A stretch of 64,000 nt of DNA, taken from positions 6,084,954 to 6,148,953 of the forward strand of contig CM120644.1 of NCBI GenBank assembly GCA_051362555.1, in the 5' to 3' direction. This stretch comes from Lingula anatina (Eukaryota > Animalia > Brachiopoda). The first letter of the stretch is position 1. Each line of letters opens with the position of its first letter. Shown here piece by piece: positions 3,801-38,144 of this stretch. Below the pieces are notes generated by a model. That model searched no databases, had not been told where the DNA came from, and worked only from the letters and a program-made list of their open reading frames with translations. Both the position numbers and the translations under genes were made by a program.

Positions 3801-4216
3801 TCCCCATTCACATGTAGTGCAACAGAAGTTGACCGGAAGTAAAACTACCCAACTCTCGCCCAACTCTCGTGGTCACAAGCTCATAACACAGAGGGCAATA
3901 CAAATCTCGCGGGAGTTGGCATTCCATTTTCTCTACTTCTATGTAAAAACGAACAAGAATATTCTTCATACCGAGAATCACACAAGGGCATTATCATACA
4001 GGGTTCTGGGGTCACTATTGATCTGTTTTGTCAATCTGGAACATTGTCCCTATATGTGGAAGACAAGTTATTGTACAAAATCTCTTTAATGGTGACCTAT
4101 TATAATGTCTTTTATGTGTGTCTGTTGTTCTTTGGTCGTGTTATTATCCATAACTGCACTGAGGTTTATCATCTTTTGTTTTTGAGCCACCATTTAAGGG
4201 ACGTACCCACTACCAA

Positions 4217-5413
4217 GTGTCTCAAGGCCACACATTGTTTTTGCACCAGTTATTCGCATACATACAAGAGATAAATAGTTACAAGTTGCTGACACCTTAT
4301 GTTCCTCCCGCAGTCCACACACTCAGACCAGCTTCTATGTCATGGTCTGAGGGGATTCGAAAAATCCTTTTCACATTTGGCCTTGGAGATGTGTGGCTTA
4401 GCCAATCACCTCCAAAAAACTTCACCACAATTTTCAAACAAAGACAAACTGACCACTTTACCCAAATATGCAATAGCAAACTTCAAGCCAGCAGTAAATT
4501 GTCTCTCTTCCGTATACTTAACCAAAAGTGTGAAAGGGCAACTTATGTTGATAAAATAACAAATTATGACACCTTGTCAACCCTTGCTAAACTACGTCTT
4601 AGTGACCATAAACTCCACATCGAAACTGGGCGGCACACCAGGCCAAAAACTGAAAGGTGCGACAGAATCTGTCGCCTGTGCACCCAAGGGGTAATTGAAG
4701 ATGAATACCTTTTTATATTCCAATGCCCAATGTACAAAGCAGACCGAGTCACCTTTTTTAGTAAAACCTCAATCCTAAAAGCTGATATAAGGTCACCAGA
4801 CAGTCAATTATGCCATGTATTTAACAGTGCCAACAAAGATACTTTAGTGTCCCTCTCCAACTTTATAATCAAATCATTCAAGAAAAGAAGTGAATTGGTT
4901 GCTCTGCTTGGTAACTCTTAGCATATCCCTTAAAATGTCAGTGTATGGTCCCACTGTTGTGAGAAGTGACTCGGCAGTGGGACTGAACATGGCACAATAT
5001 TTATATCTGTGTAACTTATTTACTTATCTGTCTTATGTAATTGTCATTAATAGTAATTATCTATGCCATCAAACTGGCCTTAAACAGCCATGTAAACAGC
5101 TATGTAACTGTGGTTTTAAGTTTAAACATATCACATATCCTTTTGTGTAACATGTTTATAGTATGTTTATGGTAAATTTATAATCACACCAAGGTTTATC
5201 TCATTGCTTAGATAGAATATTTTATGAGTAATTTTACTAGTACGTATGTTCATTATATAAAGATTATTTTTTCCTTCACAAATGGTTAGGCAACATAATA
5301 CCAACTAGAGAAATGGTAATGCACTAACTGTATTGTATCGTCATTAGTATATCATATTGTACAATGTCATGACAATCTATGTACCAGTACAGAAATAAAT
5401 TGAATTGAATTGA
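4217..5413 (+). mobile_element. 5'-truncated non-LTR retrotransposon (RTE-X-like C-terminus, 3' UTR and tail)
   Basis: ORF motifs LAKLRLSDHKLHIETGRH and RICRLC..IEDE..FQCPMY; ends in AATAAA followed by a (TTGAA)n tail at about 5395-5413. Confidence 0.8.
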
Positions 5414-6498: not shown

Positions 6499-9400
6499 CT
6501 ATCTTCCCAACAAGTCGCTGATCTTCCCCGACAGGTCCACCTGTAAATTAATGTATGTTTACACTAATATGACAATGTAGAGTTATAGGCGAACATGATG
6601 GTTTTAATTACACGTCTGATGATACTGGTATGACAATGCCGAGTTAAAGATGAGCACTAACGCATTATGGATAAAATCTCCTCACAACGGTTGCATTGTT
6701 CATAACAAATCTTTACTTATAATATACTGAGGGATCAGGGTTTCTTTTTACGGACATTGTTGAAGCCTAGGTTACATTTGCCATGCAATGGCAGTGCGTT
6801 GCACGTATAGCGTCCGGTAATCCCTTTTCGTTTGGCGTCTGTGTGGAGGGGGGCGGTGACCGTGCGATCTCGTTCCCAGCGGGCAAATCAACATTGAATC
6901 AATGTTGAATCAACGTTGATGGTCAACGTTGAAACTATGTTGATATGACGTTGACTATGAAAGTTGACTCAACGTTGAACCATCAAGGTTGAATCAACCT
7001 TGAGGTATCAATGTTGAATCAACGTTGACGGTCAACGTTGAAACTATGTTGATATTACGTTGACTATGAAAGTTGACTCAACGTTGAACTATCAAGGTTG
7101 AATCAACCTTGAGGTATCAATGTTGAATCAACGTTGACGGTCAACGTTGAAACTATGTTGATATTACGTTGACTATGAAAGTTGAATCAACATTGAACCA
7201 TCAAGGTTGAATCAACCTTGAGGTATCAATGTTGAATCAACGTTGACGGTCAATGTTGAAACTATGTTGATATAACGTTGACTATGAAAGTTGAATCAAT
7301 GTTGAACCATCAAGGTTGAATCAACTTTGAGGTATCAATGTTGAATCAACGTTGACAGTCAACATTGAAACTATGTTGATATGATGTTGACTATGAAAGT
7401 TGAATCAACGTTGAACCATCAAGGTTGAATCAACCTTGAGGTATCAATGTTGAATCAACATTGATACCTCAATGTTGAATCAATGTTGAAATAAAGCTGA
7501 ATTTGAAAATTGAATTAACATTGACATATCAATTAGGCTATCAGGATATTTGATTGAAATTTGCCTGATGGCTGAAGGTGTTCTCCAAGATATCAAGCAT
7601 TTCTTGAAATAAAAAGACTCAGATCTGAAAAGGGGGGGGATTAGGAAAATTACCTACAAAAAAAGGTAATTTCGGAAGAAAAGGGGGGGTCCAGACCCCG
7701 GGACCGGCCCCTGTATCCACCTATTGGTCGTCCAATTTTTTTTAAACTTTCCAGTTTGATGCTCAGTGTTACGGACCAAAACAGCCCGAACAAAAAAAAA
7801 ACACAAACAACAACTAATTTAACTATGAATATAATATACTACAAACAATGAACATACACTACATACACTAACTACATGTAATACTATCATGTTGCATAAA
7901 CTTTAACATTTGTCAAATACAGTTAAATTCTAACAGATTCGTAGACAGTTAAGTTTTGAAGACGCAATGTCACAGTTTTACGAGTCCTTTTCTGTTGAAC
8001 GTTCCTCCTGATAGTGTGGGGTTTTGAAGACGCAATGTCACCGTTTTCCATGTCCTTATCTGTTGAACGATCCTCCTGATAGTGTGGCCTCACAAAGTAC
8101 TGTTAATAAAGTACAGTTTTTGTACTGTAAAAGTGTTGCACACTGTCCACACTCACGTGTTGCATCAGTTCATGTTATCCGGAGTCTCGCACTTAATAAC
8201 AGTCCCGCACTTCATTTACATTATACAAGTATGCAGGCACATACGGTAATTACTCATAAAAATTAAACAACAAATTAGCTTTACTAAAATAATTATAACG
8301 TCACATCAGGTAGTTAAAATTTTAAGAATACTAAAACAAAGGGTCACCAGTTCTCACAGCTAACTTAAATTTCCAGAAAAACAGGCATTTTTGGCTTTTT
8401 CAAGCTTTTTCTTCAACCTTGAGTAAAATTTTGTCAATTTGCCATAAAGTAAGGCTGGTGACCCTTATGTTTTTTTCTTTTTCTTAAAGATAACCTGAAC
8501 ATCAAATCTGGAAAGTTTTAAAAAAAACTGACGACCGCTTTTTTCACAAAATTAATTTTAATGAAAAAGGGGTAAAACAAGCGTTTTTTATGTCTCCTCC
8601 ATCCCAGTGCATCACAAAGTTGCATATTCCCGTTCATAGCAAAAGAGAATGCAACAAAAACTATCGGGTGTTCGTGATTTGGCCAAACAAGGCCGCTTTT
8701 ATTAAATAAACTCACTATCCTAATAATTTTAACAATAATAACAATGTGGCAAATTGTTGCCTGCATTAAATGTTATGGCCTTAGGGATAAAAATTAAATA
8801 TAAAATATGCCTAATAGTCGGCAGATGTACTACGTACAGTGTACATGTACAGCTACTCCCTGCTTGAACTTGTACATAATCTTTCGCTGATATAATATGC
8901 TGTAAACGTGTTGTAACGGTTCGAAATATCGATGAACTGCTGGAAAGGTCTCATCGAAGGAAAAGCCGATGAAATTTTCTGAACTGAAGGTTTAAGTTGA
9001 AAGTCGGAGATAACTTGTAGCTTCAACGTATCGTGCGCGACAACAGAATGAGCGCAAAATGGGTCAGGCAGTGACGTCCCCTGGTATAAGTAGCAACATG
9101 TGCCTCAATTGGGACCACCCCTCCAGGTAGAATTGAGCATGTGCAGAATGCGCATGTGCGTAAATAAGCTCTGGAGATTGTTATCGCCATAAAATATCGT
9201 TTGACTACGCCAAACTTTCCTATGAGGGGTAATTACAACTATGCATACCTCTCTAGTGAGATAATCATTTAAAACTATTATCCAGGTTATGATTAAGGTT
9301 AAAAGTTAAGGTTGACCCAATGTTGAGATCCAATTGATATGTCAACATTGACAAAGGGTTTACAAACACAGGTTGATTCAATGTTGAAATCCTGTTGATC

Positions 9401-12334
9401 TATGAACATTGAAAACTGATTGACAAAGAAAGGTAAAATCAATGTTGAGACCCTGTTGATCTATCAACATTGACAATTGGTTGACAAGAAAAGGTTGATT
9501 CAATGTTGAAATCCTGTTGATCTATCAACATTGAAAATTGATTGACAAAGAAAGGTTAAATCAATGTTGAGACCCTGTTGATCTATCAACATTGACAATT
9601 GTTTGACAAGAAAAGGTTGATTCAATGTTGAGATCTTGTTGATCTATCAATATTGATGGATCAACATCATCTCAACCTATCCTCAATGTTGAATCAACGT
9701 TGAGTGCCCGCTGGGTTCAAGGTATTGCGGTTTCACGGCTCCCTAAATCTTTTGACAAAGTTTTTAAGTGCCATATCCATAAACCGATGCAATATCGTAG
9801 GTGACATTGAACAGTTCAAATACGGGCATTACTCGGTGGACTTGAAGTGATGGTTATGATTGCTTAACCCGTTGTTGGTATCATTCGCTACCTCTTTGGT
9901 GGTTTTATAAGGCATGGCAATAGCGAAAATGATAAAATCTGAGTATATTTCACTTGTATGAATTTGAGGTCCTGCGTTCCCTTATTCTGACCACTTTGAT
10001 GTCAAAAACACGGAGGCGGGGGGGGGGGGGGGGGGGGGGGGGTAACCGACCTTATCAGTCTTCAAGGAAGTTGCACGGAGGGAGTTCGGCATCTACACTA
10101 GGTGCCTTGGCAAATGTCATCTAGGCTTTAGCCGATCTCGATTGCAAATTAAGATTTTTACAGGTTATTATGTTTAAGTGTTAAAACATCTCACATGTCA
10201 GTGTAAAACCTCATAACGTTATCTCATTGAAATGCAGTGTGTTTCAGATATAAAATAGGGTTCTTACCACATTTGGATTGATTGTCTGGAATGTTTCCAA
10301 GTGTGTTCAATAGAAATGCAAACATATAAGTTAGAAGGAAAAAGATTAAATAATAATCATTTGATCATGTAAAACCGACTGTCACCAAGCCATGAATAAT
10401 TATGTTAAATGCTTACATTTATAGTTAAGGACTAGCACATTAAAAAGAGTATCTCCTGTGGTCTTATTAAAAAAGAGAGAAATCATTTATTGCAACTTAA
10501 CCATTATGCTTCTTATTTGAAAATATAGTTTCTTACCGGAATCGGATCAAGACAAAGAATCTGGAATGTTTTTGAAATAAAATTAATGTTTGGTGAAAAA
10601 CAAATATTCTTGTTTGCCCTAAATGTGCATGCATATTCATTATAACTTAACACATTGATTTACAAAAATCACAATCAAAAATGTTTGTATTATGATCTAA
10701 AAAACAAAACAAATATGGTTAAACCTATTTGATCTAGGAATATGTTATTAGTTACGTTAAACCTTAAACAAATAGACTAGTTTCACCATTACACGGCATA
10801 TATGCACATGCCCACAGTTGTAAAAATTAAAAAATAAAATATATACATATATATATATATATTTTTCAAACTTACCGGATATAGTAAACATTCAAGCTGA
10901 AGGGGAAAAGGCCACGTTGTATATATATATATATAACTTTTAATTTTTGTGGTTTCATTGCATCTATATTGAACTATTTTCTCTTACAAATTTGTACTAG
11001 TAAAAAAAATTGAGGATAAAATAAGTGTCAACCATTTGAAATATCATATGAGTATCATAATAATAATTACAAATATTGACAATTATAATTTCTCTTTATG
11101 TAAACTCCTTAGCCAATCCCGAGTGCAAATCTATTTTTTACAGATAAGAATGATTCAGAGTTTAAGCCCCTGACACTTCAGTAAAATACCTAAAATATCA
11201 TCTCTTTGAAATGCAATTTGTTTCAGTTACGAAAATACGCGTTCTTACCTTATTTGGCCATGGCTTGGTTGTCTGAAATGTTCCAAGTGTTTTGGATACA
11301 TATAGTAATTCATACGTTTAAGTTAGAAGACAAAAAGATTTTACTAAAAATTTCTTTAATCATGTAAACCGAATATCATCAAACTATCATAAAAATGTGC
11401 ACATTTAGATACAAGTTCTAAAGGCCAACTTCATTTAATATCCCAGTGTTATCCCGTGCGAATTAACATAAAGAAAATCATACTCCGGCCTGTTATTTAT
11501 TGCAATAGTTATCAGTATACCTCTTATTCTGAAATATAGCTTCTTACCGGCAGTGGCCAATCACATGGAATCTGGAATGTTTTTCATTTAAAATCAATGC
11601 TTTGGAGAAAACAAATATTCTTTTTTACCCTAAATGTACATACAGATTGGCAAAAATCATAATAAAAAAGCTCAAAATGAATATGGTTAAAATCATTTGA
11701 TCTAGGAATATGTTATCAGTAATGAAAATAAGGTCTGAGTAAGAATCAAAACGAATATGGTTAAGAGTATTTGATCTGGGAATATATTATCGATTTATTT
11801 TTATCAATAATGTTAAACCCGAACAACAGACTTTAGTTTTCACCACTATACGGTATATGCACATGCCCTCAGTAAGGGTTTTCTATTCGGCTGTATCATA
11901 TTGCAAAAGCAGAGAAGAGCATCTATTTAAAAAAAAACTTACCCATGGGTATCTTGAACATGGAAGCTGAAAAGGGGAAAAGGCGAAGTTATATTTATTT
12001 ATATATTTGATGTTTTTTCTTGCTGCGGTGTTATTTTCTTCGATAGATTTATTCTGTCAATAAAACTTGAGGAACACGTGCTAAAGCTTTAAAACATCTT
12101 ATGAATATAGATATAGAAATAAAAAAAAGATTACTGCTATTTAAATCAATTCCTTTGCCGCTTTCGAGTGCAAATGTAGTTTTTTATAGATGACTTTGTT
12201 TCAGTGTTCGAGCACCTGTATAGCACCTCAAATGTTATCCCTCTGAAAAGCAGTTTGCTTCAGATATGAAAATATAGGTTCTTACCTCATTTGGGACGAT
12301 TGTCTGGATTATTAAAGTTTCCGTGTGTTTTGAA

Positions 12335-12365
<31 letters not shown>

Positions 12366-12957
12366 TTAGAACAAAAAAGGTTAAAGTAATTATTTGATCA
12401 TTTAAACCGATTCTCAACAAGCCATATAAATATGTTAAATCCACGCATTTATAGTAAACGGTTAGTACATTCTAAAAACAAACGTGCTACAAAAATTTTA
12501 AAAAGAGAGAAATTGTTTGTTGCAAATTTATCATTCTGCTTCGGATTAGAAAATATAGTTTCTTACCGAAAATGGAATACAGGACCCCTGGAATGTTTTA
12601 AAAATGAAGTTAATTCGTTGGGGAAAAGAAAATATTCTTCTTTACCTCGAATGTACATACATATACATTATAAGTTTTCAGGCAGATTGACAAAATGTTT
12701 TATTAAAAAAGAATGATGGTCTCATAAGCAAAACGAATATGGTTAGACTATTTGATCGAGGGATATGTCAAAAGTAACGTTAAGCCTTAAGCAAACAGAT
12801 AATAGTTTTAACCAATAAACTTTATTTATACTTGTCCTCAATAAGGCTTTTCTTACCATGCATGACTCGGTTATCCTTTATTGCAAAAATAGTGAAGGGA
12901 ATCTATTATTTCTTAAACTTACCCCTAAGCATGGCGACGGCTGAAGGAAAAAGGCAA

Positions 12958-13035
<78 letters not shown>

Positions 13036-15607
13036 GAAGAAAAACGATTAAAAAACAATCATATGATTATGCAAACCGATTATCGCCAAGTCACAATTAA
13101 AAACTTTGTTAAATGCATACATTTATAGTAAACAATTAGTAAACACTTTAAAAATGAATGAATAAAAAAAACAATATGTATGCCGACCAATAATACACAA
13201 AAAACATAGGGAGCATTCAGATAGACACATCGTGTTTGTTGGATCGGTCCAATTCTGTGGGGCTCTCACTAACTGCAATCGACTACACTAAATGACACGT
13301 CTCCTTGGGTAGTTAAGGAGCAACTAATTTTCTTGTCAGCTCTGCTGAACTACCCTCCAGCTGCTCTTGGGAGGCGTGTCAGACAATAAACCTAATTCTA
13401 CTGATTGCACTTAGCGAAAATCCCCGCATGGTTACACCTATCCGATGACGTGACAGACCCTACGCTGTGTCTCTCTGAATGGGGTCACATAGTTCCTTAC
13501 ATCTACAGGTAGGATAGCCCGTTCGTCAGTGCCGCGAAGTACGGAAAGGAGGCGGGAACCTGAAATCAAATAATTGTAGAAAACTATTACTATTTTACAA
13601 CAAATATATGTGATGTAGATGTCAGTGTTTCGATGAACAAGTATTCAACTCTCACAATATGTTGAAAATATCGGCCATGGTTACTATTATAAAAAAAATA
13701 ATAACTACAGTATTTATTTGTTTCTTGACGAGAATAGAAGAGTCTCGTTAATGATAGTTACTCAAGAGTCTAAGCAATAAATAAATAGATCGAAAATTAA
13801 AACAGTAACCAACAACTTATCTTGCAAACTCAAACAAACTGTTACTGTTTTCGAACCCAAACATTTACAGAAATCATATACATCACATAAATTACATGTA
13901 TTTGAGTTTCAGCAGTGTATTTCACACACGCTTTTCACAAGCGTAATTATGTTCACACGTCTTCTACGTTGACACCCTTTCCAATTTTTTATAAAATGAA
14001 TTTCTTTTCATTGTTTTAGATTGTATTTGCGGTGCAATTTTAGCTGGGGACGTAACTCTCAAGAGCTGATTGCCACTATACCATAGTGAACATACGTTAT
14101 TAACGTAAGGTTGTGAATATAAAATATAAAATTGTGAATGCCATGTTGTTAAATGCATACAATGTAGGATTGCAAAGTCATTCCAAGTGCATGGATCGCT
14201 TATTGTTGAACTTATCTGAGGACAATAATAACTTTTAAAACATAAAATTATAGACAAATGGCCTCGCCTTCGCCGCCACCTTTCTAACATCGGTAGCCAG
14301 CCATCTTGACACAGTTTGTAAAAAGAGCGAATCACGGCACGAGGGTCCTGCGATATCTGGAAGTCGAGTTAATGGAATAAATGGTGTATCTGGATAACCT
14401 CCACTTATGCGCAGGTTTTGATCTTTGGCCTTTTACCAAAAGTGTGTCAGAGTCAAGTGATTTCTAGACCAGCAAACACGACACGTTCGGATCACGTGGC
14501 TAACACGTTGCTACCACATTATAACGTCATAGCAACGTGCCAGCCACGTGATCCGAACGTGACGTACTTGCTGTTCAGGAACGGATATTAAATGTTGGTA
14601 AATCTTGAGGAAAATGCCGTTTACCCCGGGATAATTCGTTTAGTATGGTTTTTGGCTCAAGAAATTCTCCTTTATGCACCATTAACTGTGAAATGCTTCT
14701 ATTCATACTCTAAAACAAAATTCAAAGGAAAGGTGCACATGGTATGTCGTGAGGCCTGGCTTAGAGATGCGCTTATCTGCAAAGTAAAGCGGGTAGGATA
14801 GGCCTTAAAGTCATGTCGGTATAGCCTTCTGGTATCAGCCTAACCTCTGATAACAGGTCAATTTTCAGATTTGCAATTCTCATCGACGTTTATGGCAGTT
14901 TTTTAAGAGAATAGCCGGAGGGGATGGACAAAAAATATACAGAACGATAAAACATAACATTATATGAAGTGTGTAGTTGCATGATATAAAAAAAAAGAAA
15001 TTGTTCCCTAACAATTTTGCCCCTTATTTTCTGGCACTTTTCTGGCGTTTATATAATCATGGATTAGTTATTTATTCATTTCCAGGATTATATAAACGTG
15101 GCAAAATAATACATAGTCAGACATCGCAATTGTAGTAATCAAAACTGCTTAATTCCCCAAAACTGTAAATAATGAAATTCAAACAAAGTTTTTTTGCGCA
15201 AGAATTCAAAATTATAATACAACGGAACTGGAAACTTTGTGCTTTTTGAAAGATTGAACAAAATGGTCGTCACCACAACGATTTAAGTAAGGGAAGGATG
15301 TTTTTATTTTCTTTTCCTATTATTTGCATACTATGACTATTTAACTTTCTTACCTCAGAATTTCTTGTTAAAACCAACCATATTAAGTCCAAACATTTTT
15401 TCAAATCCAAAACGAAAGCAAAACAGTACAGATTTAAAAAAAATCACAAAGGGTCAATTAAGCACATATGTTAGCATACTGCCTTGGTTACTTTTTACTT
15501 ACTTCTGGTAAAGGAAAAAAAAGAAAAAACTCACCGCGTGTTTCCTTGGCCCCGTTCGCTATGTCACAAACAAAGCACACAACGACGCACAGCAAGAACG
15601 CTCTCAT
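6499..15607 (-). CDS. Micro-exon gene A: secreted Cys/Pro-rich prepropeptide, 12 exons, 121 aa
   Basis: Exons (all GT-AG): 15607-15535 MRAFLLCVVVCFVCDIANGAKETR; 13559-13501 GSRLLSVLRGTDERAILPVD; 12940-12923 PSPCLG; 12587-12567 GSCIPFS; 12303-12286 TIVPNE; 11966-11943 LPCSRYPW; 11571-11548 IPCDWPLP; 11272-11249 TTKPWPNK; 10896-10876 LECLLYP; 10560-10537 ILCLDPIP; 10285-10268 TINPNV; 6540-6499 VDLSGKISDLLGR*. Phases join without a stop; hydrophobic N-terminus; AATAAA on the minus strand at 6451-6456. The last exon is the least certain (3.7 kb intron). Confidence 0.8.
6890..7490. repeat. Five tandem 109-bp units (left subterminal array)
   Basis: GAAACTATGT recurs at 6931, 7040, 7149, 7258 and 7367. 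Confidence 0.92.
9370..9660. repeat. About 61-bp tandem units (right subterminal array)
   Basis: GTTGATCTAT recurs five times at roughly 60-61 bp spacing. Confidence 0.85.
10180..12960. repeat. Three diverged tandem units of about 1 kb, each carrying three micro-exons of gene A
   Basis: Shared landmarks AATATAG(T/C)TTCTTACC (10522, 11533, 12552 approx.), AATATGGTTA..ATTTGATC, and CTGAAG/AAAAGGC repeat at about 1 kb period. Confidence 0.88.
12962..13032. repeat. (TA)n(TG)n microsatellite
   Basis: Direct reading. Confidence 0.95.
14469..14573. mobile_element. Small hairpin MITE in intron 1 of gene A
   Basis: CACGTTCGGATCACGTGGCT...AGCCACGTGATCCGAACGTG inverted repeat with CCAGCA-like ends. 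Confidence 0.7.
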
Positions 15608-16050
15608 CCTGCTGCAGGCTCTTCCTCAAAAGTATGAACGTCAGAACTGCAACGAGCACCTGGGAGCCCAGAGTTGATTTAAATAGTCACATAAAATACA
15701 TGCCCACGCAATATAAACGGGAAGACCGACCCCTCGTCACACGTACGTGTACGTGCCATTATGCAGGTTTGCCCGAAAACTGGTTTAAAGGAACTTAAAC
15801 ATCTGGGCGCGTTTATCTAAGGAGATGCGACAATGCAGAGCAATAATAACGTAAAAAACCATACTGTGTTGCACACTGGAAAAGTTCTGATAGCTATACA
15901 GCTATATGATAAGCAAAATAGAAAACTGAGCCACGAAAAATACGAGTATTTTATTAGTAGACGGAAATACAAAAGGTGATCTTATAAGTTTTAGACCCTT
16001 TGTAATGAATAAGGTACCATCTCTACACCTTCGTGTAATATTTCATCTTA

Positions 16051-16352
16051 AGGCCTAGTCACAATGTAGGCGATCTGTCGGGGATAAGTTTTGGCCGGGG
16101 GTCGTCGTAGAAAATAAAGAATCCTTGAACAATCCTAGCAATAATCCTAATAAAAGTGAAGCAGTCACATTGTCTGAGATTTTTTCAAGGATTTTGACCC
16201 GGTTTTGTCGAAAAATCGTGGGATTAGCCTCCGATCGCCTCCGATTGCATCGGAGGCGATCGGAGACGATTTCTGAGAGCGTCTTTTCTTGTAATTTTTT
16301 CCCCCTGGGTATATGTGGGGGAAAAGGAGGGTTTTCTGACCTCGGTCATCTG

Positions 16353-16399
<47 letters not shown>

Positions 16400-16879
16400 A
16401 TTATTATATATATACACGGCGATTTACTACGATTCCACCGTACGATTCGTCGGAGACGATCACATAAAGCGTACGAATCGTCGCAGGGCGCCTCCGATTC
16501 AGTCGGAGGGCGCCGGAGACTACTCGCAGACATTGAATCTCAACCTGATTTTCCAATCCCACACAGAATCTTGCGACTAGTCTCAGATTATTCGGAGGAC
16601 GCCTCCGATTAATCGAAGGGCATCGTAGGTCATCGGAGATTGTGTCTGGGATGCCCAAAATGGGTGAAAAATCTTGCGAGCAATCTTAAAATTTTAAGTT
16701 CAAAGTTGGGGACCGCGACGGGTGTGGCGATGTCTAAAAAATCTGCAACAACCCGCAGGCGTCCGGAGAGCGCCTCCGACGGGTGCAAAATCGTGAGATC
16801 TGTCTCAAGATTTTGTTCAAATTTCCCGGGTTTTACTCATCCCCGACGCATCGCAACTGATTTGTGACTGCATGGGCCT
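16051..16879. mobile_element. PIF/Harbinger-type MITE upstream of micro-exon gene A
   Basis: Imperfect TIR AGGCCTAGTCACAA / TTGTGACTGCATGGGCCT flanked by TTA; CpG-rich interior with repeated TCGGAG/CTCCGA motifs and a (TA)n tract. Confidence 0.68.
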
Positions 16880-18959: not shown

Positions 18960-21900
18960 CTAAACCAGTGCCTTTTCGCACACATAGCCCCCCACGTTGC
19001 CATTGCAGCTGTAATCATCAAACTCGTAGTCAACAAAATCCCGCCTTCCAATCCAGAGGACCATGCAAGGACCGTTCCCGTCAGGCTGATAGTCTCCGGG
19101 CACGCCCGCCGCCTTCGTCCAGCCATCATAAGCCACTTGTTGCCCTGTAGGTACCCAGAAAAACTGGAGCTTGCGGGCCTCCCTAGAGTTCACTGGCGCC
19201 CCAGTGCGTGTAGTGACGGGGTTAATCGAAAGACGCCGACCCCCCACGTACCATCCAATGAACCTGTTTGGTGGGGTGATGGCTGGAATGAAATTAAAGT
19301 ATTTATTTAGAAGAATGGATTTTATCCAGGGTGAATTTTTGAAAGGTTTAATAACAAAATAAGTTACACCCAAATGCCGATATAAAATCAAATTTAAAAA
19401 AAGATCACATCTGATACATTGACAAATTCATGGTTTTGCTAAATTGGGAAGCAATGTTCAAAATTATTTTCTGTGGCTTTCCACGTTCAAAACTGTAGGC
19501 GCAGACCTGGGTAATTTTACTATTTAGGACCCTGTTTTGGGAAATGCCTTAAGCAGGCAACACAAAACAGGGATGCGTGCCCGCTGTGACCCCCAGATCG
19601 GCCATTGCCCAGGGCTCCGTATCTCGAAAGGTTCGCTATGTTGCTCACGTGCGCAAGCGTCCCGATTCCATAACCGATTCTATTTCGAGATACGGGGCCA
19701 TGGAATCGAGACACTTTAGCACGTGCGCAAGCGTCTCGATTCCATGGCCCCGTATCTCGAAATAGAATCGGTTATGGAATGGAGACACTTGCGCACATGC
19801 GCAACATTGCGAACCTTTCGAGATACGGAGCCCAAATCCATTATACCCCGTTCACACTACGCTCAGTTATCCGGATAAATTGCGAATTAGGTCACAATTC
19901 GAATAAATGCAGTAGTGTGAACGCAAGAGGATTTTTGTAATGCGCATTTTCAAAATCCTGCAAGCGAGGTGGATTTCTAAGCGCGATCCGGATAACTTAC
20001 CGGAATCGACACCTTTACAGATCTTACTGCGCATGTGTGCAGATAAGTGCGGATATCTATAAACGCTTGTTTATTACTTTAGCGATTGCACCAAACGTAT
20101 TTGGAGGTCACCACTCACTACAACATGAGGAAACAAACTTATTTTGCCACCTTGTACTTCTCAAGAATGCTGGAATGTCTTTTGAGTTGCATTTGTCGTC
20201 ACAAATTTTTGTTGGTATTTTAAGATTTCCTGTGCGGCGCATGCGCGAGTGTTCAAAACAGGAAGTTAAACCTGAAATTTTCAACATGGGATTCGGATTC
20301 GCTTAGCGAGTGTGAACGCAATACCGAATCGGATTCCTTATGAAAAATCCGAATTATAGAAATGCGCATTTTGGCAACTGTAGTGTGAATGGGGTATTAG
20401 TTACATAAGTTAATGATGAAATGAAGACAAAAAATTTATTCGCATTTTAGTTTCGGAACGAGCTCTTATTGTTTTGAGAATTTTGTTCTTTGTCGAGGAG
20501 AGGAGTTTGCCAGTCATATACAGTAAAAATATTTATTTACTTACGTCTTAGGTTAGTCTTGATAAACTCGTGCTCTTCGCTGGTCTCTATGGAAACGAGG
20601 TCAGCGGACGCATTTTGGCAAATTGCCCTGGACAACGCCCAAGATGGCGACCTCCCGGACACGGTAATAAACGAATAACAGGAGTTACCGAAAACACCAA
20701 ACCCAGGTGGGCAACCTAAGCAAGAAAACGATAAGTGGATTCTAGCATAAGTGTTTCATTTTGGAACAAAACGTACATCTCCAGTCTTAATTATCAGTCA
20801 AAATATATCTGTAATAAATGTATGCTTAAACCATTTCGTGGAAATATTTTTGTTTGGCAAATACTAACTTCGTCCTCTACGGGTATCATAAAAGATCCCA
20901 TCGTAATGGTATACAGCAATAAATAGATGAAAAAAACACCTTGTAAAATGTCACGATGTCCGTTAGAAGCCTCTATAGTTTGGCAAAATTCCAATATGAG
21001 GCAAGAAACATTGTTAAGACACAAAATGCACTTTCGACCATTAGAGCAGAATTTTTGGAACTTCATACTTTTCTCTTTATCGCCAAGGTTTACAGCATCC
21101 AAAACCGTTGAATAAATCGCCATCTAGAATCCCATATCGCGGTCTAAATGCCCATTTTTATAGGCACGATTTAAGTTAACCAGTAAATATCTTAATTTCA
21201 CCAGATGCAGGCTTTCATTTGGTATAGATGTGTGAAAATAGATACTCACAAGATTGAGAATTGGTGCAGGATCGGGTCTGGGTCCCCGCCCCCTGGCATC
21301 CGGGCCCATTATTACACTGTCTTTCTCTTGTGGCAACCCCTGTCCCGCAAGTCTTTGAGCAGGCACTCCAATCCCCCCACGGGCCCCAAAACGGCCTGGG
21401 TCTGCAGTCAGCTGGGTTCCATACGCGCAGGACGCACGGGTTTGAGGAGTCCGGATACGCGGCGGATTCTCCGTACTTTTCTGGCACCTTTGTGCCGGGT
21501 GCGCATGCGTGGAACGTGGGTCGAAGATAACTGGTGCCGTGATATTCACATTGGTAGAATGCGCACGCGTTGCTGTCGTCACGGAGATACTGGTTGCTGA
21601 TGCGGTTTGGGTCGCATTGTCCGACTGAAATAAAGATTCCCCACTGTCAAAATTGAGGCAAGTTTTTGTGCATTAAAATAACAAATTAGCTTTCAGCTAT
21701 TTTCAAAATATATATTCCCTTTTCTTTTGGAAACCATAGCTAAAAGTCTACAAACATAAACGAATCTGGAAGTTGGCTCTTTTTATATTCCGAATACTAT
21801 ATACGGATTGAGTACTTAATTATGAATGTGAGAGACAGGGAGAGAGAGAGAATGAGAGAGATGAAACGTCGAAGAAAAACTTTGAAATACAAAAAAAAAA

Positions 21901-21999
21901 AAAAAAAAAATTCAAAGAGACAGAGAGAGTCTTACCTGGATCAGACAAAATACGACAAAATAGGCCAATCAATACGGTAAATGCGAAGATCGCTGTCAT
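18960..21999 (-). CDS. Secreted multidomain lectin: signal peptide + chitin-binding type-2-like Cys domain + TSP1 + C-type lectin (QPD), 4 exons, about 310 aa
   Basis: Exons 21999-21936 ([21 protein letters not shown]), 21624-21250 ([22 protein letters not shown], then [25 protein letters not shown]), 20715-20545 ([34 protein letters not shown]), 19282-18960 ([24 protein letters not shown]). All introns phase 1 GT-AG, frame open. Confidence 0.88.
19612..19833. mobile_element. Palindromic MITE in lectin intron 3
   Basis: GGGCTCCGTATCTCGAAAGGTTCGC...GCGAACCTTTCGAGATACGGAGCCC, near-complete fold-back. Confidence 0.85.
19844..20396. mobile_element. PIF/Harbinger-type MITE in lectin intron 3
   Basis: TIR TACCCCGTTCACACTAC / GTAGTGTGAATGGGGTA with TTA TSD. 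Confidence 0.8.
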
Positions 22000-22039
22000 C
22001 TCAACGGTGCAATCGAATACAGATATTCTCTCAACGTTC

Positions 22040-22046
22040 TTTTATA
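22040..22046 (-). promoter_or_regulatory. Candidate TATA box of the lectin gene
   Basis: TATAAAA on the minus strand about 40 nt upstream of the ATG at 21999. Confidence 0.4.
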
Positions 22047-23934: not shown

Positions 23935-24425
23935 ATGAATATCAAAATAACTTGGATTTTCATCATTTTGCTGGTTTATGCATCAGCGGTGTTTGTTGGG
24001 AGCAATGTGATCCGTGAACGGAAACCTTCAACTTGTGAGTGCAATTTTTTTAAAGAATAAGTAACAAATACCCCTGTTTCAATATACAAGTGATAAGCTC
24101 TTACTTCAGGTGGGCTTTATTGATAATCCATCAAACTGAGCTGGGCAGTTAGCCTTATAAACATTATTTTTGTTATAAATATTTGATCCAAAAACTATAG
24201 TCTCGCGGGGAGATTTCATTTGGTTTTGACGGCTTAATAAATGGAAAAAACTGATCACCGTGTTACTGTATGTTATTGAAACCCCAATGAGTCACACTGT
24301 AGACGTTAGCAGGGAAATTCTGTCTGATCCAAGATTGCCGGTTGCATATTTATATATATACATAAAATAATAAACGAGGTCAACCTTATCACACACACTC
24401 ACACACATACACACACACACACACT

Positions 24426-24456
<31 letters not shown>

Positions 24457-25754
24457 TAGGAATGTATAAGACTGAGAAATGGACAACCCCCAAACTAAAG
24501 AGGCACGTGAACCACTGTGACCCCCATTTGGTCATTGTGGACATATCCAAATATTGGCTGCTGAAATCTCAGATAACACTCGAACCAAATGTCTAATTTC
24601 AGTGCTCACCCTTGGGCAAAAGCAATGGAAGATTCGATTTATGCATTTATTCCAGCTTCGAAATAAACGCGAGGTAAGCGATTTTTCGTTTTTGTTGTTT
24701 ACGTTTATACATACGTATGTTTGCTTGTGTCAATGTACATTCTTTTATCATTTAAAAATCCATTACAAATATCCCGGTAGCAATTATTGAATTAAATCGC
24801 ATTAAGGTTATTGTTTCGTCTTTTCAAAATAAGAATACCATTTTAATTTGAAATAACTGCCACCCAATTACGATTGTAACAGGTTGGCAATTGAAGGTTG
24901 TTTTCCTTTTTCAGACGAGTCCAAATCTATGGACGTTCCCCCCAAAGGTAAGTACACCTTAGCTCATTTGAAAGAAGCGCCTTATAAGACAATGTTTGGA
25001 CAACAATGTGATAACTTCCTCCGCCAAAAAGTTGTACTTTGTCAGTTTGTCCGTAAGCAACGTTATGCATTATCATAAGAGTAGCAATCCCAACAGTTGG
25101 TGAGTTGGATTCCAACCTGAAACCTTTGTGAGAAACTTCAAAACAGAAGCTCGTACATAACAATGGACTTAGAAACAGTCACTAATAGGAAGTCCATCGG
25201 AACCTGAAAATTGTTTAAGTACGTGGAAATTGGATTTAGAAAAATAAGTAAATTTTAGTCCTTTGCATGATGATTTTATGGCATGAGAGGGCATGTAGAG
25301 TGGGTTAAATGTATGAAAGGATTTCTGATAACTTTATTTATTCATTTTGTATTGATTTATTTTTATTTATCAGTATTCAATTCAATTCATTTCTGTACTG
25401 GTGCATGATTAATCATGACCTTTTGCAATATAATATAATAACAGCAAGACAATTGGTGCATTACCATTCTCTTTATTCACCTTCTTTGCATTCACCTTCT
25501 ATTCTTTGCAGATCACAATTCGAACTTTTCCACCGATTCCAAAGGTACAATGTAGGTTGTAGACGTTGTGGAAGATGCTTAAAGCCAATGTGGTTCTATA
25601 ACATCATGATACATGGCGATAAAAAATCTTAAATCAAAGTATAAAATATAGAATGCCATACTGTACGTCACAGAATGGTTGATCAGTTTCCCATTTATAT
25701 TTCCAGGTGACCATAAAGCCATGGACCATACGTTCTATAGTAAGTTGTGCTGTG

Positions 25755-25800
<46 letters not shown>

Positions 25801-28293
25801 TTGTTGTTGGTGGTGGTGGTGGTGGTGGTGGTGGTGTTTTTTTTTTTCCTTTTTTGATTCAATAATTTGATGAGGTAAAATCCTCGAGTCCTTGCAACCA
25901 TTCGTATGTGAACTGGTAAAAACGTGCAGAACACCGGTAGCTTTCGCATGTAGATCCATATGCTGAGCATTCCATGCATTTATAATCACACAAGAGCATT
26001 TAAGTTATGTAACATTTGTGAAATGGACAACATTTTTTATTTATTTCAGAAACCCATAAAACCCTGGACGGTGCCACCAAAAGTAAGTTATACCGCAAAA
26101 AAAGTCGCACGTTAAACGACCACTCGTACCTTGTGATTCAGTTTGTCATTTTGATAAACACTTTTGTACAGTCACATATATTGTCATCTTTAAATTTTCA
26201 GTTGTAGTTTGCAGAAACAAAATCGTCATTCATCACTGTTTTTTAAGTGGAGCTATTGTCGTGTACGTTTCGCAAAACTTTTCGCATTTTAAGAGCTTAA
26301 TTTCTTTCTTACCATTAGGTGACCTTTACTTTTCCACCTGAGGTAAGACATTATACATATAAAAGTATGTACACTAATAATATATCATATATTTCTTGAA
26401 AAAAAACGTAACGATACTTATTTATTATTAACAATAATGAATACTGGTTGCTGATGTCCCGAATATGAATAGATGAATGTTCTATATTATATATAACAGT
26501 ATACGATTGCTCACGATGTGACAAAGGTATATTGCCCTTAATACATGTATGTTACAACGTACAGTGTATATGAACGTGTATCAAAATTAGCTATCACGTT
26601 CAATATGTCTGTATGTATGTTCAGTGCATGCAGGAATATTGCCCAGTTTACTTGCATGCACTTTTGTTTCCATCTAATTATAGCATAAATAAATGAACTG
26701 CATATAAGATATATGAATAGGACTCTTTGCAACATGAGAGGGGGTGGATGTCTTTGGTAAACCGCCGGATGAGAGTGACTAGGGCAGAAGAAATTATCGC
26801 AAGGACTGGCGCAATTTGTGTTTTCTTATAGCCAATACTTATCCTTTACAACTCTAATGGACAAGAAAGATTAAGATGGTTAATAACATCAGGACACGTG
26901 GTAATAAAAAACTCTTACATGAAGTATAAAATACAGAATACCAAACGGTCACAGAACGGTTGATGAAACATGGTGATGGACCAGTTTCCTATTTATGTTT
27001 CTAGGTGACCATCAAGCCATGGACCATTCGTTCCATTGTGAGTTTTTTTTAAATATATATCTGATAATTCCGTGTGTGTGTGTTTGTGTCTGATTTAACT
27101 GGATAACTTTTGTTGGGTTACCACATTCTTATAAGAACATAATCAGTTAGATACTTGGTGCATATATTAATTCAGATATGTATCTTAACTCAATACAACC
27201 ATATTTTAATTAACTATAGAAAACATTGTGCTATTGGCTTGTACTATTACTATTTTTCTTGTCGTTGTTGTTTGTTGATGTTGTTTTGGTTCTTGTTCCT
27301 ACTGCTGTTGATTTCTACTCCTTTTCCGTTTTCTCAATAAATTAATGAGGCAAAAAACATTCCTCCTCGCTTGTGTATGCGAACATTCTTGTGTATGGAC
27401 TGGTAAAATCATGCAGAGTATGCATCGATAGCTTTCACATTTAAGTCTATATGCTTGGCATTCCATCCAGTTAATCACACATGGAAGTTTAAGAAATGTA
27501 ATTTTTGTGAAATGGACAACATTTCTTTATTTCAGAAACCTATTAAACCCTGGACGGTGCCACCAAAAGTAAGTCATACAGCAAAGAAAAACACACTTTA
27601 AACGAGCACTCGTTTCCAGTGATTCAATTTGATTCAATTTTTGGTAAACCGTTTTTTTTCAGTCACACATCTTATCATGTTTAAATTTGTATAAAGTTGT
27701 AGTTGTATAAACAAAATCGCAATTCATCAGTCTGGCATTTTAAAAACTTAATTTCTCTTTTACCATTAGGTGACCTTTACATTTCCACCTAAGGTAAGAC
27801 ATTATACATATAAATGTCTGTACACTAGCTGATATATTTCATGACAAAAAAAAACGTACCGATACTTATATATTTTTAACAATAATGAATACTGTTGCCG
27901 TGACAGGTGCCTTTAGAGACAGTCTATTATATTTGTGTCTTTATATTTGTGAACAATGGACACATTTGTATACTTTGTACATAAAACTACGCAGAAGTGG
28001 AGAAGCACCAGAAGTGTCGTTTATTTACTTTTGATAGTTTACTTCTAGAGAACAATCGGACTGCTTCCAACTGTAAGTAAATTCATCTTAAAAGAATACA
28101 TTTGGACCAGATTGTTTCAAATTCATATACTTAAACAAATACAATGTAAACGTTGTAATCACACCAATGCTTGTCATATTGAAATTTCAGGTAAATCTAA
28201 TCCAATCTAGATACCGATTCTGTTTGCATTCATTTACTCCCTTCTCTCCCATTGTCTATGAGATAGCTTTTGTAAACCGTTTTATAACGTGTG

Positions 28294-28324
<31 letters not shown>

Positions 28325-28475
28325 AAACAATGCCAATGCAGTGATGAACTGATGCGTGCCAATCCGGTACATTTATCCCATTAACTCATCAAACATTTGA
28401 TTTTCATTATTCTTACAGATCGTTCTGCCAACAGCCGCACCTTTACCAACATTCCCTCCGGATTTGATTGGTTAA
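23935..28475 (+). CDS. Micro-exon gene B: secreted Pro/Thr/Lys/Trp-rich cationic prepropeptide, 11 exons, 154 aa
   Basis: Exons (GT-AG): 23935-24034 MNIKITWIFIILLVYASAVFVGSNVIRERKPST; 24603-24673 LLTLGQKQWKIRFMHLFQLRNKRE; 24915-24947 TSPNLWTFPPK; 25707-25739 VTIKPWTIRSI; 26050-26082 KPIKPWTVPPK; 26319-26342 VTFTFPPE; 27005-27037 VTIKPWTIRSI; 27536-27568 KPIKPWTVPPK; 27770-27793 VTFTFPPK; 28049-28072 RTIGLLPT; 28419-28475 IVLPTAAPLPTFPPDLIG*. Signal peptide, RNKR furin-type site, AATAAA at 28588-28593. The exon-2 acceptor is ambiguous (in-frame alternative at 24573). Confidence 0.82.
25640..27900. repeat. Two tandem units (about 25640-26450 and 26920-27900), each carrying three micro-exons of gene B
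   Basis: Shared AAGTATAAAATA.AGAAT.CCA, TTTGTGAAATGGACAACATTT, GGTAAGACATTATACAT and AACAATAATGAATACTG. Confidence 0.9.
25757..25836. repeat. Compound (AAT)n(TTG)n(GGT)n microsatellite in a gene B intron
   Basis: Direct reading. Confidence 0.95.
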
Positions 28476-30272
28476 ATGGAGAGCGTGGCGGTTTTATACT
28501 TGTGGCCAATCAAACTGAATAGCAATTCCCAGTATCCCTAGTTCGAAAGAAAATATTACTTTATATTTCAAGGAGTGAAAAAAAAAGAATAAAGTGACAG
28601 ATATTGCATGTCTCCATTCAGTTAAGATGCCTCAATGGGCACTCTCTGTTTGGTGAAACATTTGTTTTTAAGTGTTTGCATTATTGTAAAACATTGATAT
28701 TGTGTTAATATATAACAAAATATAAAACATGTGGACATTTTACTACAGATCGTTGCACACCTTTAGTCCTATGTACACTTGTTTACAAACGATCACATGA
28801 CAGCTCTTAGGTGGAAATATTTCCATACTTTTGTAAGGTGGAATATTTCCATAATTTTGTAAAGTGGAAATATTTCAATACTTCACATATCTCGTTATAC
28901 CAGAGAGGCCAAGTAATATTTAAAAATTGAAAGTAAAGTAGATGGGCGAAAGCATAAGTAATGTCGAGATTAGGATATAAAAAGACTGGTGGTATGAAAA
29001 CTAGGAGGGACGAAGGCAGTGGGAATAAAGCTGATTGGAAATCTACGAATCATGCCGTTTATTTCTACTCTTTAGTCAAACAGATTATGGAACGTTGCAC
29101 CTTCCTTCGACAATTATCATATTTTGAACGAGGACAATTTTAATATAAGAGGTAGGCAAAGAGGATGAAATGATTGTTTGTTATCTGAATCGTTTCGTTT
29201 GAAACACTGTTTTGAGGAATGGAAAGGAGAATCTCCAAAACTAAGGAGGGGTGTGTTTCACACTGTGTTCCCCTTCTAGGGCTCATCCCCAATGAAGGCA
29301 TCCTTCCACGTAGATTAATATAACTACGCTGGAACTGTTGCTGAATGCACTCAGTCTAATAAATTACCCCTGGCGTTGAGCAGAATACAAAAACACTGGT
29401 GATTATAGAATGTCGTTGATATATATATATATATATGGTGCGCATTCACTTACTACAGTTAATGAAGAGGTGATGCAGGATGAGAGGGGACCTTAGAATT
29501 TAAAGGGGGGTATGTTGCCATCTCCCCGGCCCTTGTTGAGGTACCGCTGCTTAGTCCAGATAACTCACGTATTAAGCGCACATATGTTTGTTGTTTGGAC
29601 TTATTCAGCTGATGATCTTATGATAACGTCGGGAAAGAACAATAACGTAACTGATCTGAAACTGTTTTACATAAATCAGTCAAGGGCCAGAAAACGTGCA
29701 TTTCATTCAGTTGTCTTCATGAGTACGTTCTGATATTAAGAGTATACAAGGCGTTTAACTTTTAGAACTTTGTAATTTCGATTAAAGTCAAATAAGCAAA
29801 AGCAATTTTTGGCTATTAAAAGCATGGCATTTCATTAGACCGTTAATTCGGTTAATGACAATTACGTTGATTTGGTAAGAAGGGTGATACCGAATCACAG
29901 CTTTCAATGACGATATAAGAAAGAAAGAAAGAAAGAAAGAAAAAAAGAAACGACAGAAATGTCATTTGAAATGACAGCATCTGTAATGACGATGCATAAC
30001 CAACAATGCTGTAAATCTTCAAACTGGTTAATGTATAATAAAACAAGCATTAATTTGCTGCCCCTATTTTCTGGCCACTTGCAGCTAAATTTATATCTAA
30101 TATGTTGTGCATATTATCACTGTTGATATGATAGTTTCTTTACACATTATACATAATCATTGTCACCTCTTGGGGTCAGATACCGTGTACCACATTATAA
30201 AGGAGACTGGGCGCGCTATATACCTCACATGCCATTGTTCACTATTGACTTCCAATACCATGATGTGACAAT

Positions 30273-31171
30273 ATGGCCGAGACATTGGCAGCGGACTTCA
30301 CGGATAACATTTTGACATGTAGTATCTGTCTGGCAGAGTATAAGGACCCTCGAATGTTGCCATGCTACCATACATTTTGCCTTGTTTGTGTATCTAGTCA
30401 CGCAAAAAGAACCATTACTACAAAGAAGACATTCCAGTGCCCTGTTTGCCGAGAAGATGTTCAGTTTCCAGCAGGTGGACTTTCTAAATTCAAAAAGAAT
30501 TTTGCCTTTTCCAAGGCCAAAGACATAATAAACTAGCACCAAATACGAGGACATCCTTGAACTCCACCATGCCTCCTTGCAAAGTGCCTGTGACTTTGCT
30601 CAACAACTTGTGGCAGATGTGTCAAAGTGTACTCCACCAAAGGTAAACCGGTGACAACCATGGGTCAGGGTCAACTGGAAAAGCCAAGTTGTATCACAAT
30701 GAATAGACAAGGTAATGTGATGATTTTTGATGTGGAAAAATAATCCATCCTCACATTCCACGCAGGCAGTGGGTATCTCCTGAACACTATTCGACTCACT
30801 ATGTGTAAATGCCCCACTTCCATCACAGTGAACAGTGCTAAAGATAACATTGTGATATCAGACTTATGGAACTGTGTTCACGTGCTCTCACCTACTGGTG
30901 ATCAGCTATACAAATATGGTACAGAAAGCAGTGGTGTTGGCCAGCTGAGTTTTCCTAGTGGAGTGTGCACAGACAGCTATGGCCACATCTTCATTGCTGA
31001 TGGTCGTAACAATAGGATTGTAGCACTGAGTCCGCAAGGACAATTTATCAAATACATTGCCACTGAGGATGATGTGTTGAAATATCCATGGCTTTAACAA
31101 TAAATCCATCTGGCCTGCTGGTGGTGGCAGAGAGAAGGGGTATAGATAAGACATTACTGTACTTACAATAG
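30273..31171 (+). pseudogene. TRIM-NHL pseudogene (copy 1), internally deleted
   Basis: RING ORF stops at 30534-30536; two large deletions remove the B-box/coiled coil and the first NHL region; further stop and frameshift in the NHL part. Confidence 0.88.
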
Positions 31172-36323: not shown

Positions 36324-38144
36324 ATGGCAGAGGCATTGGCAGCGGCTTTCACGGATAACATTTTGACATGTAGTATCTGTCTGGAAGAGTATGAAGACCC
36401 CCGAGTGCTGCCTTGCTACCATACATTTTGCCTTGCTTGTATATCTGACCATGCCAAGGGAACTCTCACTGCAAGCAGGACATTTTCGTGCCCTGTTTGC
36501 CGAGAAGATGTCCAGTTTCCAGCCGGTGGGCTTTCTCAGTTAAAAAGGAATTTTGTCTTTTGCAAGGCCAAAGACATAATAAACCAGCAAACGGAAACAG
36601 GGTCGTCAAATAATGCACAGACTAATGTGGAAGCAGTGACACAAGCCGTTGAAAAATTGACCAACGGCTGTGAGAAACATCCTGGCAATGAACTGAAATA
36701 CTACTGTGAAGATGATGATACAGTTGTTTGTGGTGACTGTGCATTGACTGATCATTACAGGCATGGTATTTTACCTGTAGGAACAGTTGCGGATATCAAC
36801 AGGAGAAAAATCAAAACTGCCCTTGTTAACACTGTGGCAAAAGTTAACGTATTCAAAGAAGCCGCCAGAGAAGCAGCCAATGGATTTGAGGACCCCGGTA
36901 TCATGATTGCCACTATCAACAGCGTTGAAAGACAAGCCCATCATGTATGTAGATTAATTAATGCGAGGAGAGACTCATTGATATCAGACGTTAAGTTTGC
37001 CTATGATGCCAGAAATGAGCAATATAAGGCAATAAAGGACACCCTCGAACTTCACATTGCCTCCTTGCAGAGTTCCTGTGACTTTGCCCAACAACTTGTC
37101 GCAAACGGCACTGACTCTGATATCATGACACATGCAAAGTCTCTCACAGATAAACTGACAACAATGGAAAGCATACCAGTACCAACATCAGACACACCTG
37201 CAGAGATATCTTATATTCCTGGTGAAATACCTACTTCTAGACTGGAAGCCATGCTAGGACAGGTGACAGTACATTCAAAACCCCCGTTAGCCGGACGGGG
37301 AACAAATCTAAAATCATCACCGAATGTGCCTATTTTCTTAGAGAAGGCAGAATGTGTATGTTCTTTTACTGCCAAACTTAAACAGGATAAGAGAGAAGAT
37401 TTTATGTGTTGGAATTTAACCATAGATGGGCAATTTGTATATGTTGCATGTGTCATAGATATTGAAAACCTCGAAACAAATGTGCGAGTGTTCACACATG
37501 CAGGTCAGTTCTGGCGTCAAATAAGGTTAAACAAAGCAATTGATGTGGCTGTGTCACAGACTGGTAAAATGTATGTGACGTCAGAAGGCAACAAACGAGT
37601 CAGAGTGTACACCACCAATGGCATATATATAAAATCCATGGGTCAGGGTCAGCTGGAAAATCCAGGTTGTATCACACTGGACAGACAAGGCCATGTTGTG
37701 GTTTATGACGTGGACCAAAAATCTATATTTACATTCCATGCAGACACTGGAAGGCCCCTGAATACAGTTCCACTCACTTTGCCTAAATGTCCTTGTTACA
37801 TCACAGTGAATAGCGTGAATGATAACATTGTGATATCGGACTTGGACAACTGTGTCCATGTGCTGTCACCTACTGGTGATCATCTGCAGCAGAATAACGG
37901 TAGTGGTGATGGTCAGTTGAATGGATCGTCGGGGTTATGCACAGACAGCTATGGTCATATCTTCATTGCTGATGGTCGTAACAATAGGATTGTAGCAATG
38001 AGTCCACAAGGGCAGTTCATCAAGTATGTTGCCACTGAAGATGATGGATTGGTAGGGCCAAGGGGATTAGCTATCAACCCTGCTGGTCTGCTGGTGGTGG
38101 CAGGGATGGGGGGTAAAGTTAAGACATTCAAGTACTTGCAATAG
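36324..38144 (+). CDS. Intact intronless TRIM-NHL protein (RING, B-box, coiled coil, NHL repeats; TRIM2/3-like), 606 aa
   Basis: RING CSIC..PCYHTFCLAC..CPVC; B-box CEKH..YYCEDD..VCGDC..H; coiled coil; NHL repeats (GHIFIADGRNNRI, PRGLAINPAG). Confidence 0.93.
   Translation: MAEALAAAFTDNILTCSICLEEYEDPRVLPCYHTFCLACISDHAKGTLTASRTFSCPVCREDVQFPAGGLSQLKRNFVFCKAKDIINQQTETGSSNNAQTNVEAVTQAVEKLTNGCEKHPGNELKYYCEDDDTVVCGDCALTDHYRHGILPVGTVADINRRKIKTALVNTVAKVNVFKEAAREAANGFEDPGIMIATINSVERQAHHVCRLINARRDSLISDVKFAYDARNEQYKAIKDTLELHIASLQSSCDFAQQLVANGTDSDIMTHAKSLTDKLTTMESIPVPTSDTPAEISYIPGEIPTSRLEAMLGQVTVHSKPPLAGRGTNLKSSPNVPIFLEKAECVCSFTAKLKQDKREDFMCWNLTIDGQFVYVACVIDIENLETNVRVFTHAGQFWRQIRLNKAIDVAVSQTGKMYVTSEGNKRVRVYTTNGIYIKSMGQGQLENPGCITLDRQGHVVVYDVDQKSIFTFHADTGRPLNTVPLTLPKCPCYITVNSVNDNIVISDLDNCVHVLSPTGDHLQQNNGSGDGQLNGSSGLCTDSYGHIFIADGRNNRIVAMSPQGQFIKYVATEDDGLVGPRGLAINPAGLLVVAGMGGKVKTFKYLQ

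Follow-up and report, generated by a model that had tools for sequence, protein, structure and literature searches.

The DNA analyzed here, referred to as the window, is a 64,000-nt stretch of the Lingula anatina genome, and all coordinates are positions within it. Its principal feature, gene A, lies on the minus strand and comprises three modules of very short predicted exons, termed A, B and C, downstream of a predicted signal-peptide exon (Table 1). A second micro-exon gene, gene B, lies 8 kb from gene A. Between the two, at about 18960–22040 on the minus strand, is a further gene with a signal-like exon near 21940–22040, an exon carrying a Cys-rich stretch and a TSP1 domain (PF00090, E 5e-10), and a last piece near 18960–19130 that looks lectin-like by eye and has no Pfam match. 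On the plus strand, a TRIM (RING/B-box/NHL)-like sequence without introns is present in four tandem copies, at 30225–31100, 36324–38144, 41114–42936 and 52952–54749; one copy is intact (606 aa) and three are broken by stops or frame changes. The 41 best matches of the TRIM-type ORF at 36324–38141 are all from Lingula anatina (top 82%), which marks the host as a lingulid brachiopod, and the copies belong to a Lingula-specific expansion. HYR- and Sushi-domain exons occur among them (39962–40767, minus; 60825–61664 and 63491–63748, plus), with PF02494 and PF00084 matches for two of the three regions. Broken ORFs resembling, by eye, reverse-transcriptase remnants of non-LTR retroelements are found at 4163–4921, 43178–43672, 55084–55702 and 61887–63386.

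Table 1. Predicted features of genes A and B, with positions in the window.
Feature	Position	Strand	Description
TATA-like box TATTTAAA	15678–15685	minus	ATG follows after about 70 nt; putative function
Exon 1, coding part	15535–15607	minus	ATG at 15607; predicted signal peptide; 24 codons + 1 nt
Candidate 2-nt phase bridge	15503–15504	minus	strong acceptor + 2 nt + GTAAGT; top-scoring candidate
Candidate 10-nt bridging exon	15354–15363	minus	AAG acceptor, strong GTAAGA donor; phase 1 to 2
Candidate 28-nt bridging exon	13656–13683	minus	weak donor
B–C intron remnant	13032–13154	minus	upstream of A1; identity to the B–C introns 74–77% (modules 1 and 3)
Three tandem ~1 kb modules	about 12008–12988, 10927–12009, 10128–10938	minus	from blastn; exons and introns duplicated together
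Micro-exon A1	12923–12940	minus	18 nt; PSPCLG; Cys at codon 4
Micro-exon B1	12567–12587	minus	21 nt; GSCIPFS; Cys at codon 3
Micro-exon C1	12286–12303	minus	18 nt; TIVPNE; no Cys
Micro-exon A2	11943–11966	minus	24 nt; LPCSRYPW; Cys at codon 3
Micro-exon B2	11548–11571	minus	24 nt; IPCDWPLP; Cys at codon 3
Micro-exon C2	11249–11272	minus	24 nt; TTKPWPNK; no Cys
Micro-exon A3	10876–10896	minus	21 nt; LECLLYP; Cys at codon 3
Micro-exon B3	10537–10560	minus	24 nt; ILCLDPIP; Cys at codon 3
Micro-exon C3	10268–10285	minus	18 nt; TINPNV; no Cys
Candidate last exon	9888–9938	minus	16 codons + stop; one Cys (would be the seventh); weak acceptor
Gene B	23935–28475	plus	12 coding exons, nine of them internal, 24–33 nt long and phase 0; no Cys

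An earlier note on this DNA had described each module as an A exon with one Cys, a B exon with one Cys and a Cys-free C exon, joined to give the loops C-LGGS-C, C-SRYPWIP-C and C-LLYPIL-C. All nine pieces are present in this arrangement, and the loops read exactly so in the joined frame 0, with spacings of C-x4-C, C-x7-C and C-x6-C. The length of every piece is a multiple of three, and all nine are preceded by CAG and followed by GTAAG; the introns between the predicted micro-exons measure 251–371 nt. When the pieces are concatenated in order, frame 0 is the sole stop-free frame and encodes 64 residues, 15 of them Pro and six Cys, and phase 0 was assigned on that basis, stops appearing in the joined pieces when phases 1 and 2 were tried. 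The note's assertion that all exons are phase 0 thus carries over as a property deduced from the open frame, in which any subset of the exons can be joined. A 19-nt candidate exon at 12857–12875 was rejected, being open only with A1 skipped and having no donor in modules 2 and 3.

Several counts bear on whether such an array could arise by chance. The window contains 39 instances of the pattern CAG + 12–33 nt + GTAAG (both strands counted); nine of them are gene A exons and five are gene B exons, every one a multiple of three in length, compared with 10 of the remaining 25. Across the three modules of gene A, the core splice columns are invariant in 24 of 24 cases (p about 2e-6), against a three-way invariance of 57.7% (392/679) for intron columns. 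Pairwise exon gaps between modules are all multiples of three (8/8, the pairs not being independent), as are 14 of 57 intron gaps. Among 20,000 shuffles, a stop-free frame arose in 4.1% and at least six Cys in 1.05%. The GC content of the exons is 46%, versus 29% for the whole span. The invariant splice sites, the exon gaps and the pattern counts together indicate that the gene A exons have been kept by selection, at least until recently, and the identification of gene A as a real micro-exon array, with its exons predicted from DNA, is well supported.

What has been kept is narrowly defined. The frame, the splice sites, the Cys residues, and the T and P-N of the C exons are constant across modules, and overall module-to-module identity is 61.5% in exons (107/174) and 69.5% in introns (1462/2103, pooled). 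Between modules, pN is 0.34–0.37 and pS is 0.32–0.38, from 16–21 codon pairs per comparison. This near-equality on few codons lends no support to positive selection, and it fits relaxed constraint as well. Taken alone, Cys retention has a probability of about 0.11 under intron-like drift and is not significant.

The two ends of gene A are less sharply defined. Exon 1 lies 2.6 kb upstream of A1, and its signal peptide was judged by hydropathy only, which reaches 3.6 in the leader core. Its donor, GTGAGT, is phase 1, and an alternative donor, GTAAGT after 15503, is phase 0; with the first donor, a bridge to the phase 0 of A1 is therefore required. Three candidate routes are open and arrive at A1 in phase 0: the first exon may be read through to the donor at 15503, a 30-nt intron may be followed by a 2-nt exon, or the 10-nt and 28-nt exons may be used in succession. 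The 30-nt intron is probably too short for splicing, and read-through may occur instead. At the other end, the candidate last exon sits at about the usual C-to-A spacing; in alignments with the A exons, 34–380 of 500 shuffles reach the observed score, and homology is not significant. Neither AATAAA nor ATTAAA occurs in the 1.5 kb downstream of C3.

Repeats surround these ends. Related satellite-like arrays at 6886–7524, 9308–9715 and 51749–51806 are built of 109-nt and 61-nt units rich in TCAACATTGA, and two of the three have a common CCCAGCGGGCA end; they probably represent a mobile element bearing tandem repeats, and one of them lies immediately downstream of gene A. Inverted repeats with arms of 53–111 nt, probably MITE-type insertions, are present at 14462–14581, 16219–16528 and 19612–19833. 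The repeat at 14462–14581 falls within the upstream intron of gene A, where it attracted RNA reads from other loci.

Gene B provides an independent view of micro-exon architecture at this locus. It encodes a signal exon, an RNKR cleavage-like site and Pro/Trp/Lys-rich repeats, with one unit per 24–33 nt exon, and holds a duplicated three-exon block. A search with the signal exon returned a single protein, XP_013402169.1 of Lingula anatina, and 151 of 165 residues are identical without gaps, with GT–AG at all 11 introns; the exon layout reported here comes from mapping this protein onto the window. Since the fit has no gaps, an independent annotation evidently arrived at the same splicing for such an array, and a micro-exon layout is thereby credible in the surroundings of gene A. 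Within the 71-nt exon 2 of gene B, an inner acceptor would give an 18-nt phase-0 exon (24656–24673). XP_013402169.1, named 'adhesive plaque matrix protein' by its source, resembles gene A in its phase-1 signal exon, its duplicated phase-0 micro-exons and its richness in Pro, and exon C2 of gene A is similar by eye to its TIKPW repeat. Unlike gene A, it has no Cys, is cationic, possesses a dibasic cleavage site and is encoded on the opposite strand, and blastn reveals no DNA similarity between the two genes.

The modules of gene A retain traces of how they arose. Identities between modules by blastn are 70.9% over 673 nt and 65.4% over 1397 nt. The B–C intron remnant upstream of A1 (matches with E 1e-18 and 5e-12) abuts the A1 acceptor, with a (TG)n(TA)n run at the junction, and appears to be the trace of a further module, lost or partial. 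Alignments of donor flanks between B and C exons were compared with shuffled sequences, of which 0 of 300 reach the score for B1/C1 and 5 of 300 that for B3/C3; the B2/C2 alignment is not significant (53/300), and no significant homology was detected between the A and B units. The donor flanks common to B and C suggest that single exon units were duplicated first and the A-B-C block afterwards. Gene A may accordingly be pictured as having grown when a small unit of exon plus intron, and next the entire A-B-C block, was duplicated in tandem, with selection holding the splice sites, the frame and probably the Cys residues while other residues would drift at about the rate of silent sites or introns. 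Loop variety would then come mainly from divergence among three hard-wired copies.

We consider it most probable, at roughly 0.6, that the nine in-frame pieces of 18–24 nt in three modules constitute a micro-exon gene whose main product is a secreted Pro-rich peptide of roughly 100–120 residues, with six Cys predicted to lie in three short A–B disulfide loops, and to which skipping would add little. The peptide would consist of a signal leader followed by three short loops that differ through drift between copies. Local A–B pairing is suggested by the Cys spacing and by the even, paired layout. The layout, the fast change and the neighbouring TSP1, HYR, Sushi and TRIM sequences point, at about even odds, to a surface or mucus secretion serving defence or binding, with a structural or adhesive role as the next candidate.

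The earlier note went further, proposing that skipping could pair half-loops from different modules to create new loops. Part of this proposal survives, in that every subset of exons is in frame; the hybrids that it named, A1+B2, A1+B3 and A2+B3, keep the loop length of the parent. Because the third codon encodes Cys in B1, B2, B3, A2 and A3, five of the six exons with a Cys, the A exon alone determines loop length. Specifically, A1+B2 and A1+B3 joins preserve C-x4-C with two loop residues changed, and the A2+B3 join preserves C-x7-C with one changed, and hybrid joins also alter residues past the second Cys. A–A and B–B joins yield spacings equal to those of A–B joins.

Routine joining of A and B exons across modules, yielding a pool of disulfide-looped variants, therefore has to be weighed against how little each hybrid loop would differ (just one or two residues) and against the exons that would be lost. 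The three joins drop three or six exons, A2 or A3 among them, and these have the strongest acceptors, with 13–14 pyrimidines out of 15 compared with 5–9 for B and 7–8 for C (acceptors were scored with a simple in-house matrix of generic rather than species-trained weights). Insofar as the acceptors of B and C are weak, skipping, if any, would most likely remove B or C exons. The acceptor of every B exon ends in the same 12 nt, AAAACATTCCAG, which are rich in A, and its pyrimidine tract is poor; the C exons carry a related end, and this common end may act as a conserved signal in the splicing of the micro-exons. In addition, 256 of the 512 in-order subsets of the nine exons contain an odd number of Cys and would leave one free, no junction reads were present in four RNA runs searched without a positive control, and the RefSeq cluster of the gene B match has one member and no isoform label, which is weak evidence. 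Routine mixing is favoured by the symmetry of all nine exons, by the skip variants that do occur in schistosome micro-exon genes (PMC4015677) and, speculatively, by (TA)n runs in several introns that could pair and loop exons out. On balance we regard it as unlikely. Equally doubtful is its broadest form, in which skippable x-x-C exons with one Cys each would be spliced A–B, A–A and B–B to build up a repertoire of peptides constrained by disulfide loops and serving recognition or defence, within a cluster of MEG-type secreted-peptide genes that evolved independently in this free-living brachiopod. Skip isoforms, if shown, would make the one-cysteine-per-exon design a new way of varying disulfide-constrained peptides.

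The A and B Cys of each module lie 4–7 residues apart, which is compatible with the small disulfide loop that had been proposed for every module; the register of pairing is not fixed by the sequence. In a different register, each B Cys would bond to the next A Cys across the linker (C-x12-C, C-x15-C), or chains would be cross-linked in a structural or adhesive secretion. The single x-x-C design common to A and B exons and the Pro content (15/64) would suit such a product, the B–C intron remnant above A1 means that the array need not have begun with an A exon, and the candidate last exon would supply a seventh Cys. However, the intact array runs from an A exon to a C exon and so contains three complete A–B pairs, and the candidate last exon combines a weak acceptor with no significant homology to the A exons. 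Such a register is accordingly improbable, and local A–B loops are retained as the preferred arrangement.

Four of nine same-label raw-read RNA runs were compared with the gene A region at positions 9700–15720, using 1262–1766 million letters per run (6–25% of each) and no positive control on neighbouring genes. Read depth was nil over 9700–13116 and 15328–15720, which include all micro-exons and exon 1; the 15–44 reads per run all fell in intron bins and nearly all were only partial fits. Exons of 18–24 nt may escape read placement altogether and, given the absent positive control and the unspecified tissues, zero exon reads neither prove nor exclude expression. With exon 1 as query, no protein of 80–2000 residues had three 5-mers in common, phmmer gave four matches, all to unrelated repeat-like ORFs, and exon 1 alone matched no Pfam family. 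Genes of this type are thus easily overlooked by annotation, no gene A protein record having been found by the exon-1 search. A recently dead or rarely expressed gene, its exons real relics at a locus that no longer yields protein, would account for the lack of reads and of an exon 1 homolog, the awkward exon 1 bridge, the absent polyadenylation motifs and the repeats inserted downstream and into the upstream intron, yet it is quite improbable in view of 18 of 18 splice sites and the frame remaining intact while introns diverge by 30%.

Known systems allow the predicted secreted micro-exon product to be placed in context. Apidaecin-type precursors of proline-rich, secreted defence peptides likewise combine a signal peptide with Pro-rich repeats, and the nearest Atlas cluster of gene B by features is apidaecin-like (0.80, below threshold, a value reached by a third of shuffled proteins). 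This likeness is a lead only, and gene A departs from the type in its near-neutral charge, its Cys and its absence of dibasic sites between repeats. Atlas structure matches for gene B all had TM below 0.4 with a poor model, and were disregarded. The Lingula genome paper (PMC4595640) reports, in its shell-protein section, novel alanine-rich shell proteins that are unlike the gene A type, and the searchable text of its supplement makes no mention of 'adhesive plaque' or 'proline-rich'.

The closest comparison is with the micro-exon genes (MEGs) of flatworms, of which a general description is also given in PMC10526429. An operational definition calls for at least seven exons, of which at least half measure under 70 nt and have a length divisible by three (10.1101/2020.04.08.031872), and gene A falls within it, with nine consecutive micro-exons among about 11–13 predicted coding exons. 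In schistosome MEGs, symmetric exons of 6–36 bp make up about 75–80% of the coding region (PMC5825161, PMC4015677); the share in gene A is 192 of at least 265 nt (exon 1 contributing 73 nt), at most 72%, or about 60% with the candidate last exon. Schistosome-type MEGs have a signal peptide and a secreted product (PMC4350168), and membership in the functional sense entails variants produced by exon skipping (PMC4015677, PMC5825161). As is predicted for gene A, those of Schistosoma, Echinococcus and Hymenolepis place short symmetric exons after a signal leader (PMC4350168, PMC5825161, 10.1101/2020.04.08.031872). Gene A is also like flatworm MEGs in that its residues change fast, its exons have been duplicated and a gene of the same layout lies nearby; its product, as theirs, is small, probably secreted and free of known domains. 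The likeness is one of layout, and the exons of gene A are predicted from DNA.

Gene A differs from flatworm MEGs in its host, a free-living brachiopod, and in the regular A-B-C periodicity of one Cys per exon. MEG architecture has been read as a device of parasitic flatworms against host immunity. MEGs are said to 'appear to be restricted to platyhelminths' in PMC4350168, and searches of the open-access literature brought up neither micro-exon genes in brachiopods or Lingula nor Cys pairs divided over micro-exons. What is new in gene A is therefore the brachiopod host and the one-Cys-per-exon design, the MEG layout itself being already known. That a free-living brachiopod has two neighbouring genes with such a layout, one of them matching a RefSeq protein, suggests that ordinary tandem exon duplication also yields it. 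Overall, our verdict is that gene A is a MEG-like gene built through exon duplication in a free-living animal. With brachiopod genes of this kind, one can test whether MEGs exist for the sake of skipping or whether skipping is a side effect.
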